A stretch of DNA of 12,589 bases from a virus, in the UHGV virus genome UHGV-0247912, one strand, 5' to 3'. Of this stretch, positions 1 to 12,589 are shown one piece after another. Each line of letters begins with the position of its first letter. Within the stretch, counting starts at the first letter, position 1. The notes under the pieces are model-generated. The model was not told the DNA's origin and made no database searches. It was given only the letters and a program-made list of their open reading frames with translations. A program made the position numbers and the translations under genes.

Positions 1-1158
1 GAGATAGCTGATCGTGATGGCCTGTCAGCCAGGATAAGCCCAAAAGGGAAAATTACTTTCCAGTACCGTTACAGATTCAACGGTAAGCCAGTGCGAATGA
101 AGATCGGTGAATACGGGAAAATGAGTCTGAAAGACGCCCGCTATGCGGTGTCTGAATACAGGGAGTTGCTTACGAAAGGGAAGAATCCGGCACTGTGCGT
201 AAAGCAGGCCATAGCCTTTGAGCAGGGCAAGCGATCTATATCCGACGTAGTGGAAGACTATCTATCCCTGCCGAACGTCATTAAGCTGGTGGCATATAAA
301 GAAGTCAAAAGCGCATTGATGCGCCACGTAGTCAACAAGTACGGCGACTACATAGCTGACGACGTAACGACAAAACAGTGGATGGATATATTTGGCGAGA
401 TCACTGCGGCGGGTCACGCGGTTACGGCTGGTTTGATATTGAAGCGAATGAAAATCATCGTTAACAGCGCAATCAGGCGTGGGCTAATGACTAACACGGC
501 GATAAACAATATCCGTGTAGCTGACGTTGGCGAGCATTATGCGGTGGTGGAGCGTTACCTTTCATGTGAGGAGATAGGCCACTTCTGGCGCACGGTAGAC
601 AGTTCGCAGATCTATCCGCAGAACAAAATAGCCTTAAAGCTATTATTGCTAACCGGGTGCAGGGTTGGTGAATTGCAGAAAATGAGAAGGGAACACCTAG
701 ATCTGGACAACGGTGTATGGACCGTTCCGGCGGCGGTGGCGAAGACAAGAAGTGAAATCAGGCGGGGATTATCTGACTTGTCGATAAAAATGCTCAGGGA
801 GGTTTTAACCTCCCATGAGTATGATTATGTATTCCCGCCAGTGATTAACGGCGGCAACAGGCCAGTAAACGTATCAGTGATAAAAGTAGCTGCAATATTC
901 GTGCGTAAAAGGATGGGCGGTAAATCATGGTCCTGTCACGACCTCCGCAGGACGTGCCGGACACACCTTTCAGCTATAGGTGTTCCGGTACATATTGCAG
1001 AAAAGATCTTAGGCCATTCATTAAGGGGAATACTGGCGGTGTACGACAAATATGATTATCTTGATGAACAAAAGGAGGCACTAAATAAGTTTGCTGATTA
1101 TGTGTTATCTTTGGCTGACGTTAAACCAATCCGATCAAAGAACTGCATTACGTCCTGA
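1..1158 (+). CDS. int: tyrosine recombinase / phage integrase (P4-type); N-terminus lies upstream of the window
   Basis: Frame 1 is open from base 1 (EIADRDGLSARISPKGKITFQYRYRFNGKPVRMKIGEY...), typical integrase N-terminal domain. C-terminal catalytic region has HDLRRT, LGHS and a Tyr near the end (AVYDKYDYL), i.e. the R-H-R-Y pattern. Stop TGA at 1156-1158. Confidence 0.9.
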   Translation, partial: EIADRDGLSARISPKGKITFQYRYRFNGKPVRMKIGEYGKMSLKDARYAVSEYRELLTKGKNPALCVKQAIAFEQGKRSISDVVEDYLSLPNVIKLVAYKEVKSALMRHVVNKYGDYIADDVTTKQWMDIFGEITAAGHAVTAGLILKRMKIIVNSAIRRGLMTNTAINNIRVADVGEHYAVVERYLSCEEIGHFWRTVDSSQIYPQNKIALKLLLLTGCRVGELQKMRREHLDLDNGVWTVPAAVAKTRSEIRRGLSDLSIKMLREVLTSHEYDYVFPPVINGGNRPVNVSVIKVAAIFVRKRMGGKSWSCHDLRRTCRTHLSAIGVPVHIAEKILGHSLRGILAVYDKYDYLDEQKEALNKFADYVLSLADVKPIRSKNCITS

Positions 1159-8929: not shown

Positions 8930-9577
8930 ATGAAAACAAAATGGTATGACTTAGCAAAGCAGCTCATGCGGGCGCAGGGCATGAGCCAGGATTCACTCGC
9001 GGATCGTATGGGGATAACTAAAGGCGGCCTGTCACACTGGCTGAACGGTCGCCGAGAGCCAAATCTTGAAGATATTGCGCGGATTATGCGCGAGCTTGGT
9101 CGTCGGCAGTTTACTGTTACACATGATGGCATGGTCATTGATGATTCTGTTTCTAATACACTTCAGGCCGTGCCGCCGCGTGATTTAGGTAGTTACCCGG
9201 TTATTGACTGGAAGGACACAGTAAACAATATGGATGACGCAAGGCGTTCAGCATTACGACACGTTACGACTAGCGTTATTTGTTCAGATGACAGTTACTG
9301 GCTGGTTGCCAAAGGTGAATCAATGAACGCGCCGCAGGGGTTGAGCATCCCGGCGGGGACGATGATACTTGTGGACCCGCACGCGCCAGCTATTGACGGC
9401 AAACTGGTTATAGCCCAGCTTGAGGAAGGGCAGATACCGACGTTTAAACAGTTGATTATTGATGGAGGTCAAAGGCTTTTACGTTCGCTCAATCCGCTGT
9501 ATCCGCCAATCCCTATGAATCCAGAATCAAAAATTATAGGCGTGGTGGTTGATGCGAAGATCGTAAACCTGCCATAA
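8930..9577 (+). CDS. cI: cI-type phage repressor (N-terminal HTH, C-terminal LexA/S24 autopeptidase domain)
   Basis: 215 aa; HTH GMSQDSLADRMGITKGGLSHWLNG; C-terminus GESMNAP...TFKQLIIDGGQRLLRSLNPLYPPIP parallels lambda cI ([24 protein letters not shown]) including the catalytic Ser and Lys. Confidence 0.9.
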   Translation: MKTKWYDLAKQLMRAQGMSQDSLADRMGITKGGLSHWLNGRREPNLEDIARIMRELGRRQFTVTHDGMVIDDSVSNTLQAVPPRDLGSYPVIDWKDTVNNMDDARRSALRHVTTSVICSDDSYWLVAKGESMNAPQGLSIPAGTMILVDPHAPAIDGKLVIAQLEEGQIPTFKQLIIDGGQRLLRSLNPLYPPIPMNPESKIIGVVVDAKIVNLP

Positions 9578-9582
9578 ACATT

Positions 9583-9607
9583 AGCCGCCGAATGGCGGCT
9601 TTTCTTT
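9583..9607 (+). terminator. rho-independent terminator after the repressor gene
   Basis: AGCCGCC-gaat-GGCGGCT (7-bp GC-rich stem) followed by TTTCTTT, 6 nt after the stop codon. Confidence 0.65.
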
Positions 9608-9699: not shown

Positions 9700-9728
9700 A
9701 TTGACTCGATGTTTTACGGGGCGTATAT
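9700..9728 (+). promoter_or_regulatory. strong sigma70-type promoter (PL-like), AT-rich upstream region
   Basis: -35 TTGACT (9700-9705), 17-nt spacer, -10 TATATT (9723-9728); very AT-rich 9640-9698 (UP-element-like). Confidence 0.5.
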
Positions 9729-9983
9729 TGCGAGTCAAAGGAAGGGCGCAGGTAACAAAAGCAACTTCCTGGCACTTTAAAAATCAGGCTTAACACCTTG
9801 TCAACCGTGGAGTAACTCCCCGATGGGGGACCGAAAGCGGCACTGATAACAAGGCGCATGGGGTGTTTAAAGCGTTACATCCCCCACGAAACCGCACGCA
9901 AGGCGACGAGTCAGCTTGCTTGGAGTGAGCAAGGTCACGCCGGGAACGGCGATGATTGCGGGATTAGTTGAAAGATGTTAAGC

Positions 9984-10077: not shown

Positions 10078-10368
10078 ATGAGCGTTACAATTATATATGG
10101 TAAATGTGATAGCAAAATGAATGCCAGGGAACGCAGAAGGATAAAAAGAGAAAACGAAAGAAAATCATCACCTGCAATCAATAAAACAGACAATGTGGAT
10201 AAAGCTATTCGATTTGCAAACGAGGAAAGATGCAAACCAAATAGCATTAAAGAACGTCGCAAAGGATCAGTAAAATGGTATACGGAAAATGAAAGCGGCA
10301 GCTACTACCACGCAACGCAACCACGCCATTTAGGGGAAAAACCCCTGGATAAAGTCCGCTACCATTAA
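10078..10368 (+). CDS. N: N-like transcription antitermination protein (arginine-rich motif)
   Basis: 96 aa; N-terminus MSVTIIYGKCDSKMNARERRRIKRENERK has an arginine-rich motif like lambda N (MDAQTRRRERRAEKQ) and, from memory, P22 gp24; first gene after the PL-like promoter and nut-like site; RBS GGAG 8 nt upstream. Confidence 0.7.
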   Translation: MSVTIIYGKCDSKMNARERRRIKRENERKSSPAINKTDNVDKAIRFANEERCKPNSIKERRKGSVKWYTENESGSYYHATQPRHLGEKPLDKVRYH

Positions 10369-10398: not shown

Positions 10399-10521
10399 AT
10401 GGTTATTCAGGCGCTTCAATTCAAACTGGCAGTAGCGGAAATGCTTCACGATGCCGAAATGTGGAGCGCCGCGAATAAAGCCTTATACATAGTGTTAACA
10501 GCACGGGAGATTAAATGGTGA
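10399..10521 (+). CDS. small hypothetical protein (40 aa), translationally coupled to erf (Arf-like position)
   Basis: Manual translation: MVIQALQFKLAVAEMLHDAEMWSAANKALYIVLTAREIKW. RBS GGAGGTGA before the ATG at 10399; its stop overlaps the erf start (ATGGTGA). Confidence 0.45.
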   Translation: MVIQALQFKLAVAEMLHDAEMWSAANKALYIVLTAREIKW

Positions 10522-11159
10522 AAACAGAGTTACATAAAAAGCTATGGACGATTCAGCAAACGCTGAACGCGCCGAAAAATCAGCGTAATAATTTTGGTGG
10601 ATATAATTACAGGTCGGCGGAGGATATTTTAGAGGCGGTTAAACCACTGCTTCAAAGTATTACGCTGACTGTAAGCGATGAAATTGTCCTGATCGGCAAT
10701 CGCTATTATGTGAAAGCTACGGCGACGCTAAGCGACGGTGAAGACGAAATAGCGGTAACGGCTTACGCCAGGGAAGAAGAAAGCAAGAAGGGAATGGACG
10801 CAAGCCAGCTAACAGGTGCGACATCAAGTTACGCGCGAAAATATGCTTTGAACGGTTTATTCTGCATTGATGATGCGCGAGATCCTGATACTGACGCATA
10901 CGCTAAGCAGACAGGCCAGCAGCCTCGCCAGCAGAAAAACCCACCAAAACAACAACCACAGCAGCAGAAAGCGCCGCCAAATCCTGATGAAGTATTAGCA
11001 CGTTTCTGTGATGCAGCAGCGAAAGCGCAGGACGCTAACAAGCTGCGTGAAATATTTGGCAAATGCTGGAAATTACTACCGGAAGGATCGGAACATCGAA
11101 TCAAGGCAAAAGATGTTTATGACATCCGGGTAGCAGAGCTTAACGGGGAGATGGGTTAA
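10515..11159 (+). CDS. erf: Erf-family single-strand annealing recombination protein
   Basis: 214 aa; NFGGYNYRSAEDILEAVKPLL...GNRYYVKATATLSDGE...AREEESKKGMDASQLTGATSSYARKYALNGLFCIDDARDPD matches the conserved Erf core (P22 Erf-like); Q/P-rich linker. Confidence 0.9.
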   Translation: MVKTELHKKLWTIQQTLNAPKNQRNNFGGYNYRSAEDILEAVKPLLQSITLTVSDEIVLIGNRYYVKATATLSDGEDEIAVTAYAREEESKKGMDASQLTGATSSYARKYALNGLFCIDDARDPDTDAYAKQTGQQPRQQKNPPKQQPQQQKAPPNPDEVLARFCDAAAKAQDANKLREIFGKCWKLLPEGSEHRIKAKDVYDIRVAELNGEMG

Positions 11160-11563
11160 TGAGTTTAAATTCAATCACGCTGGGCGGGAATATCGGTAAT
11201 GATATGGAGGTTCGCTACACACAAAACGGGAAAGCGATTGGTAGTTTTCCGTTAGCTGTAACGAATGGCTACGGCGATAATAAGCGGACAATGTGGGTCA
11301 CTTGCCTGGTATTTGGTGAGCGTGCGGAAAAATTAGCGCCACATATCCGCAAGGGTGGAAAAATAGTGGTAAGCGGTCGCCTGGATGTTCGGCAATATGA
11401 CCGGAACGACGGCACGAAGGGAACGGCGGTAGAAGTGGCGGTTAACGAATTTGAATTCATGAACGTTAACCAACAAGGCCAGCAGCAGAAAGCGCCTCCG
11501 CAGCAGCAGAATAATAACGGGAATAATCCGCCGATGGACTTTGATGACGATATCCCGTTTTGA
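11159..11563 (+). CDS. ssb: single-stranded DNA-binding protein (short phage SSB)
   Basis: 134 aa; OB-fold N-terminus (ITLGGNIGNDMEVRYTQNGKA...), Q/N/P-rich linker and acidic C-terminal tip DFDDDIPF; start overlaps the erf stop (TAATG). Confidence 0.9.
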   Translation: MSLNSITLGGNIGNDMEVRYTQNGKAIGSFPLAVTNGYGDNKRTMWVTCLVFGERAEKLAPHIRKGGKIVVSGRLDVRQYDRNDGTKGTAVEVAVNEFEFMNVNQQGQQQKAPPQQQNNNGNNPPMDFDDDIPF

Positions 11564-11578
11564 TCCAATAGGTTAGCG

Positions 11579-11857
11579 ATGGTTGATTATCTAAAACCGC
11601 CACCACCGCCACGAACAAAAGAGCAAGTATTAAAAGAAGCCCGTGATCAAATCGATCGCGGGCTTTTTTTATGCGGCACGGCAGCGGAACGGATGGCAAA
11701 AAGATTTAGTGACCTGTACGCAAAACAAATATGGTTCGACAACTGGCAGGCAAGTTTTTATCCGCTGCAAAGAAAACCGGATATGCACTGGCCTGAATAT
11801 GTCGATCCACGTATGCGCAAATATCGCGGGCGTATGGGCCAGGTCATTAACGATTAA
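11579..11857 (+). CDS. hypothetical protein (92 aa), proline tract near the N-terminus
   Basis: Continuous with the erf-ssb operon; stop 12 nt before the next gene; weak RBS. No family recognised. Confidence 0.45.
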   Translation: MVDYLKPPPPPRTKEQVLKEARDQIDRGLFLCGTAAERMAKRFSDLYAKQIWFDNWQASFYPLQRKPDMHWPEYVDPRMRKYRGRMGQVIND

Positions 11858-11869
11858 TGAGGTGTTATC

Positions 11870-12094
11870 ATGATTGAAGAAAAAGAAGTAGATAAGGAAA
11901 TTCCTGACGGTTGTGATGAGCTTATTTGTTTTGACGGCGGCCTGTATGAGTTCGAAACGTCTGCAGGGTGGCACGATAAATGGCCTAAGCCTACTCGCCA
12001 GGAATTAAGCGACCGTAAATCATTCGGCGAAGATGCCGAACGGCTGGCTAATAACAAATGGCTTGATAAGTTAATTGCGGAGGGTGGCAAATGA
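11870..12094 (+). CDS. hypothetical acidic protein (74 aa)
   Basis: RBS GAGGTG 5 nt before the ATG at 11870; stop overlaps the next start (ATGA). Confidence 0.5.
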   Translation: MIEEKEVDKEIPDGCDELICFDGGLYEFETSAGWHDKWPKPTRQELSDRKSFGEDAERLANNKWLDKLIAEGGK

Positions 12095-12204
12095 GCTTTG
12101 CAAAAATTGCCGCATTGCTTGCGGCTTTATCTATCGCCGTGCTGTATCTCAGTGTATCTCTTTATATCACGGTAGCGATCATTAAACTCATTACTAACAT
12201 GTGA
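12091..12204 (+). CDS. small hydrophobic membrane peptide (37 aa)
   Basis: Manual translation MSFAKIAALLAALSIAVLYLSVSLYITVAIIKLITNM; RBS GGAGGGTGG upstream; overlaps the upstream stop. Confidence 0.4.
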   Translation: MSFAKIAALLAALSIAVLYLSVSLYITVAIIKLITNM

Positions 12205-12212
12205 GGCCAATC

Positions 12213-12332
12213 ATGAAAGTCGGTAAGGATATTGTGACTGTCGCGTTTTGCATTATTTGCTTCCTGTTTGTGGTTGTTTCTTGTGGCGCATTTGCTGCGT
12301 TGGTTAGCTTTATTTTTAGAGGATTGCCGTGA
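12213..12332 (+). CDS. small hydrophobic membrane peptide (39 aa)
   Basis: Manual translation MKVGKDIVTVAFCIICFLFVVVSCGAFAALVSFIFRGLP; RBS GAGG 6 nt upstream; stop overlaps the next start (TGATG). Confidence 0.4.
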   Translation: MKVGKDIVTVAFCIICFLFVVVSCGAFAALVSFIFRGLP

Positions 12333-12589
12333 TGAAAACATGGGATGCAAAGGCTGGTGATCTTGTTGTGTTGCCTGAATATCGTGATGACCCTGGCCTG
12401 GTTGTACTGAATAAGATATATAACGATCTCGAGCGCCCGCTAGTGGTTAAATACCTGGACGGAACAATCATAGAACCGCGCTACTTTGATGAGATTGAAC
12501 TAAAGGCCCACAATGTTCGCGTTAAGCCGTTCCGTGCTTATGTTGAAAACCACTGGCGGAAATTGTTCGCCGGACTGAATGGGATGTTT
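12332..12589 (+). CDS. hypothetical protein, 3' end outside the window
   Basis: Open frame from ATG 12332 to the window end with no stop (MKTWDAKAGDLVVLPEYRDDPGLVVLNKIYNDLERPLVVKYLDG...); RBS AGAGGA upstream. Confidence 0.45.
   Translation, partial: MKTWDAKAGDLVVLPEYRDDPGLVVLNKIYNDLERPLVVKYLDGTIIEPRYFDEIELKAHNVRVKPFRAYVENHWRKLFAGLNGMF

Follow-up and report, generated by a model that had tools for sequence, protein, structure and literature searches.

The 12,589 nucleotides of virus genome UHGV-0247912 analyzed here (the window) are the left 12.6 kb of a temperate coliphage or Escherichia coli prophage of the mEp021-like (mEpimmI) kind. The mEpimmI group consists of Nus-dependent, non-lambdoid phages (PMC11893012). 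Near the right end of the window two tandem open reading frames (ORFs), here called ORF-A and ORF-B, lie between genes for a 74-residue and a 90-residue protein (Table 1) and encode very hydrophobic peptides of 37 and 39 residues. An earlier sequence-only reading had taken them for two real small hydrophobic genes, each with its own ribosome-binding site, and in this it was right: frame integrity, the ratio of nonsynonymous to synonymous substitution rates (dN/dS) and conserved Shine-Dalgarno sites agree. Comparative evidence is strong that both are translated genes under purifying selection.

We collected homologous loci with the 74-residue protein as query, which brought 46 loci from IMG/VR; four annotated records and the window raise this first set to 51. 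A profile of ORF-A yielded 23 further metagenome loci, for a total of 74, although these counts are not all independent because some contigs may be one assembly under two names. The metagenome matches are all phage-like human-gut contigs of 50–55 kb with the same four-gene context. The four-gene block has 38 distinct haplotypes in the first 48 loci, with 27 distinct nucleotide sequences of ORF-A and 30 of ORF-B. Conservation of the frames in relatives was the check that the sequence-only reading had itself proposed. ORF-A is open and intact in 73 of the 74 loci (50 of 51 in the first set, 23 of 23 from metagenomes), and ORF-B in all 74 (51 of 51 and 23 of 23). All length changes are in whole codons, so that ORF-A peptides have 35, 37 or 39 residues and ORF-B peptides 38, 39 or 40. 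Nei-Gojobori estimates of dN/dS, summed over all sequence pairs, are 0.19 for ORF-A and 0.32 for ORF-B, and 0.20 for both flanking genes. When the same alignments were read in the +1 and +2 frames as a control, values rose to 1.0–1.5 for ORF-A and 0.8–1.1 for ORF-B, and these shifted frames are closed by a stop in every sequence.

A few disrupted alleles were also seen. Locus L027 (IMGVR_UViG_3300045988_060283) has a one-nucleotide deletion at about position 1735, in a run of five A residues in ORF-A, that breaks the frame; P0025 is ORF-A extended by read-through. Among ORF-B alleles, P0024 and P0026 are frameshifted variants, and P0027 is a frameshifted form reading through into the 90-residue product. 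These alleles (L027 and P0024–P0027) may be homopolymer sequencing errors or occasional real losses.

The outer limits of the pair had been placed exactly by the sequence-only reading, at 12091 and 12332; the ATG of ORF-B is at 12213, not 12214. Overlapping stops and starts with neighbors had been proposed, and they exist between each ORF and its outer neighbor but not between the two ORFs. The ORF-A start and the stop of the 74-residue gene share ATGA (12091–12094), the ORF-B stop and the start of the 90-residue gene share TGATG (12330–12334), and ORF-A and ORF-B are 8 nucleotides apart in the window. This geometry is kept in the homologous loci. The overlap of the 74-residue gene with ORF-A is −4 in all 48 loci, the gap between ORF-A and ORF-B ranges from 2 to 9 nucleotides, and the junction of ORF-B with the 90-residue gene is −1 or −4, an overlap in all loci. 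All 48 homologous loci have GGAGG before ORF-A; before ORF-B, 42 of the 48 have GAGG and the remaining six have GGGG(T).

Table 1. Positions of ORF-A, ORF-B and other features in the window
Feature	Position	Strand	Remarks
ORF-A	12091 (ATG)–12204 (TGA)	+	37 residues, MSFAKIAALLAALSIAVLYLSVSLYITVAIIKLITNM; predicted transmembrane helix at about residues 6–31
ORF-B	12213 (ATG)–12332 (TGA)	+	39 residues, MKVGKDIVTVAFCIICFLFVVVSCGAFAALVSFIFRGLP; one predicted transmembrane helix
Shine-Dalgarno site of ORF-A, GGAGG	12079–12083	+	7 nucleotides 5′ of the ATG, within the 3′ end of the 74-residue gene
Shine-Dalgarno site of ORF-B, GAGG	12203–12206	+	6 nucleotides 5′ of the ATG; overlaps the ORF-A stop (TGAGG)
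Hairpin GCCGCATTGCTTGCGGC with weak T-tail	12109–12125	+	Inside ORF-A, at the spot of mEp021 "TERM_2"; codes for Ala-Ala-Leu-Leu-Ala-Ala
Terminator-like hairpin GCCCGTGATCAAATCGATCGCGGGC, then T7	11639–11670	+	Inside the abc2-like gene; 10-bp stem, −15 to −20 kcal/mol
Integrase	91–1158	+	
S24/HTH repressor	8930–9577	+	Followed by the long operon
N-like antiterminator (Gp17 homologue)	10078–10368	+	PHROG/Pfam assignment
40-residue ORF, weak Lambda_Kil signal	10399–10521	+	Directly upstream of erf, overlapping the erf start
Erf	10515–11159	+	PHROG/Pfam assignment
SSB	11159–11563	+	
Abc2-like protein gene	11579–11857	+	PHROG/Pfam assignment
74-residue protein gene	11870–12094	+	PHROG 28542; faint DUF2737-like signal
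90-residue protein gene	12332–12589	+	Downstream of ORF-B; PHROG 28396; cut by the window end

Annotation of the pair is uneven. In RefSeq genomes the Prokaryotic Genome Annotation Pipeline (PGAP) leaves a 237-nucleotide hole at ORF-A and ORF-B. It never annotates ORF-A, and it calls ORF-B only in its 40-residue form (UMNK88, WP_000868625.1); since ORF-B is annotated once an allele reaches 40 residues, the gap is an artefact of a length threshold. For mEp021 the record shows no gene at the pair and marks a "terminator TERM_2" instead. Records based on PHANOTATE call both as hypothetical, namely mEp010 (mEp010_29 is ORF-A and mEp010_30 is ORF-B) and MagusPhagus (ORF-A is CDS0113).

These empty annotations, with the terminator listed for mEp021 and a T-tailed hairpin that scores in a scan at the same spot, would fit a different view of the locus, in which the 237 nucleotides are a non-coding spacer with an RNA element or a terminator (TERM_2) in it, and both ORFs are open by chance. 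We give this view next to no credence, and take the comparison of loci to have refuted it already: only the proposed frames show a dN/dS far below 1, and they stay open across 27–30 distinct sequences with every other forward frame closed, and the in-frame indels and conserved Shine-Dalgarno sites point the same way. Neither is an RNA element favored. The hairpin with its tail is not conserved, occurring in only about 7–8 of the 27 distinct ORF-A sequences; the remaining alleles show GC-rich palindromes of another kind that lack the tail, or no palindrome. It is probably a by-product of Ala and Leu codons, and could act in some alleles as no more than a weak pause site. A 256-nucleotide region folds no better than shuffled sequence (z = 0.22) and has no Rfam match, and PGAP itself annotates the longer ORF-B.

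Of the 124 ORFs in the window with 30 or more residues, no other is as hydrophobic as ORF-A and ORF-B, whose grand average of hydropathy values are 1.81 and 1.83; a 43-residue form of ORF-B with a GTG start (1.67) is third in the list. Insertion energies of the Hessa type (Hessa 2005 scale) sum to negative values over spans of 19–25 residues in both ORFs, and the ORF-B sum is the lowest in the window. Given only the ORF-B sequence, AlphaFold2 produced a single continuous helix over residues 4–37, with a predicted local distance difference test score (pLDDT) of 89.6. The sequence-only claim of a single hydrophobic helix in each peptide is upheld by hydropathy and insertion energies for both, and by the AlphaFold2 model for ORF-B. 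With hydrophobic spans of about 25–29 residues, both peptides have the form of a small membrane protein of at most 50 residues with a single transmembrane helix.

Each peptide starts directly with a short Lys-containing stretch that leads into the helix. In ORF-A a short N-terminus with the invariant K5 is followed by about 26 hydrophobic residues and then by K/E-L-I-T-N/D-M; the invariant residues also include Y19, S23 and Y25, and the helix has the motif YLSxSLY. In ORF-B the N-terminus is M-K/R-V-x-K-D/N, the helix is rich in Phe, Cys and small residues, and a short Gly-containing tail follows; F17, F19, G25, A28, A29, I34 and G37 are invariant and C13 nearly so. There are no charged residues inside either helix. 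The N-terminus has at least as many Lys and Arg residues as the C-terminus in every allele of both ORFs, and an N-in/C-out topology is weakly favored as a prediction for both peptides. Profile-profile comparison found no detectable relation between ORF-A and ORF-B as paralogs (probability 2%).

Two other classes of short peptide were considered for the pair and rejected. ORF-B is not a lipoprotein of the entericidin, Cor, Llp or Lpp type, as the lipobox [LVI][ASTVI][GAS]C is not conserved: the window ORF-B has VVSC at residues 21–24, most alleles have F at −1 (VVFC, IVFC), and one allelic type has VIAG in place of the lipobox Cys. ORF-A has no Cys at all. Two-peptide class IIb bacteriocins and class II microcins were set aside for want of a GG leader and of a transporter gene nearby.

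We examined how the pair varies relative to its neighbors. No other segment of the block diverges as much as ORF-A and ORF-B: their mean nucleotide distance is 0.25, and the flanks have 0.14 and 0.18. The pair sorts into four to five discrete allelic types. Pairwise distances correlate at 0.06 between the end of the 74-residue gene and ORF-A, at 0.60 between ORF-A and ORF-B, and at 0.49 between ORF-B and the start of the 90-residue gene. These values indicate a recombination boundary just before ORF-A, with ORF-A, ORF-B and the 90-residue gene tending to travel together. The 35-residue ORF-A type is always paired with the 38-residue ORF-B type. Such co-inheritance of the three genes fits a functional module; plain linkage can also produce it.

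The 90-residue family is confined to the same phage group as ORF-A and ORF-B. Many of its alleles (P0028–P0068) carry the NCBI label "toxin-antitoxin system toxin subunit". The two peptides might be membrane anchors or partners that tether or regulate this soluble protein, as parts of a three-gene module, and we think the chance of this small. It would account for the stop/start overlap of ORF-B with the 90-residue gene in all loci, for the distance correlation of 0.49 and an adjusted mutual information of 0.59 between these two, for a sharp recombination boundary found only upstream of ORF-A, and for the shared restriction of all three genes to one phage group. It is weakened in that the toxin name has no support from Pfam, NCBIfam or PADLOC models or from a PDB sequence search, that the AlphaFold2 model of the 90-residue protein (mostly beta-strand) is of low confidence and unusable (pLDDT 52.6), and that combinations of ORF-B and 90-residue types get reshuffled.

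The sequence-only reading had reported no recognizable similarity for the pair, and wider searches say the same. Neither ORF matches a family in Pfam (E ≤ 0.1), PHROGs (E ≤ 0.01), NCBIfam or PADLOC. With ORF-B as query, HMMER was run exhaustively against 1.84 billion cluster representatives and returned its own 39-residue cluster, one frameshift variant and one implausible 591-residue match. A concatenated profile of ORF-A and ORF-B found in a large protein database only 40-residue ORF-B alleles and a few frameshifted singletons. In tblastn searches of phage records ORF-B matched only the seven phages of the mEp021 group, and ORF-A had no match there, probably from low-complexity filtering. 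Species-representative genomes gave no match with the 74-residue protein or the ORF-B profile. The P22-like phages inspected share Erf, Abc2 and DUF2737-type genes with this operon, and among these abc2-bearing phages Sf6, S9-5 and JEP4 have no small hydrophobic ORFs at the equivalent spot. By these searches ORF-A and ORF-B are an orphan family specific to the mEp021 phage group.

The relation of the window to that group is close. Positions 10500–12589 share 99.9% identity with an E. coli MS 21-1 prophage and 86–92% with the seven sequenced phages of the group (mEp010, mEp013, mEp021, mEp044, mEp515, mEp554 and MagusPhagus). The window also holds a minus-strand replication operon with a Lin1244-type initiator, KilAC antirepressor, DnaB helicase and NinB. 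At 9583–9600, right after the repressor gene, the hairpin AGCCGCCGAATGGCGGCT with a T-run behind it resembles a strong bidirectional terminator. Beyond it, at 9701–9729 on the plus strand, TTGACT-17-TATATT (10 of 12 matches) is the best promoter-like site in this region and is likely the start of the early operon that includes ORF-A and ORF-B.

The sequence-only reading had put the pair at the end of an early-left operon, following the recombination genes. The pair does lie downstream of those genes. It is not at the end of the operon, since at least 15 more genes follow on the same strand in the complete prophage and in mEp021, through ipe and the Dam methylase; the window end at 12589 cuts the operon and is not the operon's own end. 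"Early-left" is only an analogy, and mEp021 nomenclature places nutR1 in this operon.

A likeness in position to the kil genes of lambda and P22 had been suggested as well. Kil, like these peptides, is small and comes from the early operon of a temperate phage that uses N-type antitermination. It is a soluble, FtsZ/ZipA-directed inhibitor of division, whereas ORF-A and ORF-B are predicted membrane helices. The positional analogy fails too: kil is promoter-proximal to the recombination genes on the lambda map and in JEP4, and ORF-A and ORF-B are downstream of erf, ssb and the abc2-like gene. Membership in the Kil family (PF06301, PHROG 2055) was rejected for the pair on three counts, as there is no model match and both position and protein type are wrong. 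The sole Kil-like signal in the window comes from the 40-residue ORF before erf, which matches Pfam Lambda_Kil PF06301 with E = 2e-4 and 21.1 bits, below the cutoff of 27.6, and PHROG 2055 (Kil) with E = 1.4e-3; its own family is PHROG 34942. It is probably the Kil-like protein listed for the mEpimmI group (PMC11893012). Judged by gene order, the true positional analogue of ORF-A and ORF-B is the accessory stretch 3′ of the recombination genes, as in the exo-xis region of lambda, which holds orf60a, orf61, orf63, orf73 and ea22, mostly of unknown function (PMC4195576). Those too are small, dispensable-looking delayed-early genes directly 3′ of recombination genes; they have no sequence similarity to ORF-A or ORF-B.

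Expression of the pair appears to depend on antitermination. Nearly all loci keep the terminator-like hairpin in the abc2-like gene, with the pair-preserving changes T-G, T-A and C-G, and it is the predicted terminator T4 of the mEp010 record; our consensus scan did not list it. The mEpimmI phages have Gp17 (N-like) antitermination with nut sites in this operon (PMC11893012). Because of this hairpin and the Gp17 system, ORF-A and ORF-B are probably expressed only under antitermination, as delayed-early genes, and the arrangement suggests that all genes downstream of the hairpin depend on Gp17/N-like antitermination. A consensus scan found no promoter-like site on either strand in 11800–12589, which alone is weak evidence; the lack of such a site beside the pair makes the arrangement of a type I toxin-antitoxin locus unlikely.

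The same operon has other genes that bear on membranes. About 2.4 kb past the window end, immediately 5′ of ipe, is a gene for a small membrane protein of 73–78 residues with apparently two hydrophobic helices (L001 8046–8267; L002 7576–7812, mEp021_28). Overexpression of Ipe ("inducer of pleiotropic effects"), from the mEp021 operon, leads to haemolysis and cell death (PMC11893012). Given Ipe and the two-helix protein, membrane-active small accessory genes may be a theme of this operon.

We infer, with about even confidence, that ORF-A and ORF-B are a co-translated pair of single-pass inner-membrane micro-proteins that act through helix-helix contacts. Both would be transcribed in the long operon that starts 3′ of the repressor gene, and, as the conserved terminator-like hairpin suggests, they would be made only when antitermination operates. 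Ribosomes would pass from the 74-residue gene to ORF-A, re-initiate on ORF-B 8 nucleotides later and go on to the 90-residue gene, and this coupling would give roughly matched amounts of each product. Both peptides would insert into the host inner membrane, most likely N-in/C-out, and pack against each other or against an integral membrane protein of host or phage through a Ser/Tyr-rich face of ORF-A and a Gly/Ala/Cys-rich face of ORF-B. They would then modulate a membrane partner during lytic growth and not act as detergent-like toxins. Helix packing is preferred to an amphipathic pore former because the helices are uncharged and because Y19, S23 and Y25 in ORF-A and G25, A28 and A29 in ORF-B are invariant. 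Surfaces rich in Ser and Tyr, or in Gly, Ala and Cys, are known from helix-packing motifs.

By analogy, we think that this mode of helix contact is the one used by known bacterial small membrane proteins and by several phage exclusion and takeover factors. Bacterial small membrane proteins of 50 or fewer residues include AcrZ, MgrB, MgtS and YohP (review PMC12648545). Like ORF-A and ORF-B these have fewer than 50 residues, about one transmembrane helix and no catalytic domain, and they are often missed by annotation; the known members bind larger membrane proteins or change the membrane state. They differ in having no sequence relation to the pair, which is phage-encoded, tandem, translationally coupled and set in a lytic operon. 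Among phages, T4 Imm, P22 SieA and HK97 gp15, and also LysM (levivirus M, 37 residues) and phiX174 E, are precedents for very small transmembrane peptides, and in general act by binding one specific host membrane protein. They have no similarity to ORF-A or ORF-B, and they are prophage-expressed genes or lysis genes of tiny phages.

Several points weigh against the proposed helix-contact pair. The rare frameshifted alleles of ORF-A (L027, P0025) and ORF-B (P0024–P0027) mean that neither gene is strictly indispensable. Co-inheritance of ORF-A with ORF-B barely exceeds that of ORF-B with the 90-residue gene (0.60 versus 0.49), and at a distance of 8 nucleotides plain linkage can explain it. The charge bias behind the topology is weak, the window ORF-A having one Lys per side. 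Helical periodicity of conservation is not significant: the ORF-A spectrum peaks at 100 degrees (p = 0.15) and that of ORF-B has no peak (p = 0.32), and we therefore claim no conserved helix or interaction face. A literature search found no report of expression, localization or phenotype for either ORF, and the mEpimmI paper with its supplements (PMC11893012) does not mention them.

The sequence-only reading had likened the pair to host-killing or membrane-acting proteins of the kil type. In a loose "kil" sense, or in the manner of type I toxins (TisB, DinQ, Hok/Gef, Ldr, Ibs, ShoB), the peptides would oligomerize in the inner membrane, dissipate the proton-motive force and stop host metabolism early in lytic growth. 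We consider this rather unlikely. Size and extreme hydrophobicity fit many type I toxins, and ORF-A and ORF-B would probably be toxic if overproduced; the same mEp021 operon encodes the two-helix membrane protein and Ipe, which is lethal when overexpressed (PMC11893012). Against this, neither ORF has a Pfam or NCBIfam match at E ≤ 0.1 to type I toxin family models (Hok, Ldr, TisB, Ibs, Fst and others), and, unlike charge-zipper or pore-forming toxins, neither has a charged residue within its helix. The genes are polycistronic, with conserved coupling to their neighbors, and do not form an autonomous type I toxin-antitoxin locus: there is no promoter-like site of their own or for an antisense RNA, and no Rfam family or antitoxin RNA. 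A Kil-like candidate is, moreover, already present before erf.

A holin/antiholin pair was also considered and rejected: such pairs are expressed late from the lysis cassette, beside endolysin and spanin genes, and the neighbors here are recombination and small early genes in the operon with the N-like antiterminator.

Superinfection exclusion, or a block to DNA entry in the infected or induced cell as by T4 Imm, P22 SieA or HK97 gp15, seems improbable. It would suit small inner-membrane proteins that are made early, and the high divergence of the pair within the block, with four to five allelic types, is a pattern common for specificity determinants. Selection on the pair is purifying overall and not diversifying, however, and there is no sequence similarity to known exclusion proteins. 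Protection of a lysogen is not expected from a repressor-controlled lytic operon behind a terminator-like hairpin, and for exclusion the group already possesses lipoproteins of the Lpp type, with genes at another place (PMC11893012).

In a further reading ORF-A and ORF-B form a heteromeric transmembrane complex that specifically inhibits or hijacks an essential inner-membrane machine of the host, for example the lipid II flippase, a component of the phosphotransferase system or Sec, or FtsH. We see only a slim chance of this; if true, the two peptides together would be a phage takeover factor or "protein antibiotic", and their orphan family would have no relatives.

ORF-A and ORF-B are a new orphan family of a familiar kind, the small accessory membrane proteins of phages. 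As generic membrane toxins or accessory fine-tuners they would be routine; should they bind one particular membrane protein of the host, they might be used to probe or inhibit it. Two genes under clear selection go unseen in all RefSeq E. coli genomes with this prophage, a common one in the human gut, because they fall short of a threshold of about 40 residues. The pair would extend a growing list of phage micro-proteins acting in the host membrane, in an operon that already encodes the cell-damaging Ipe.

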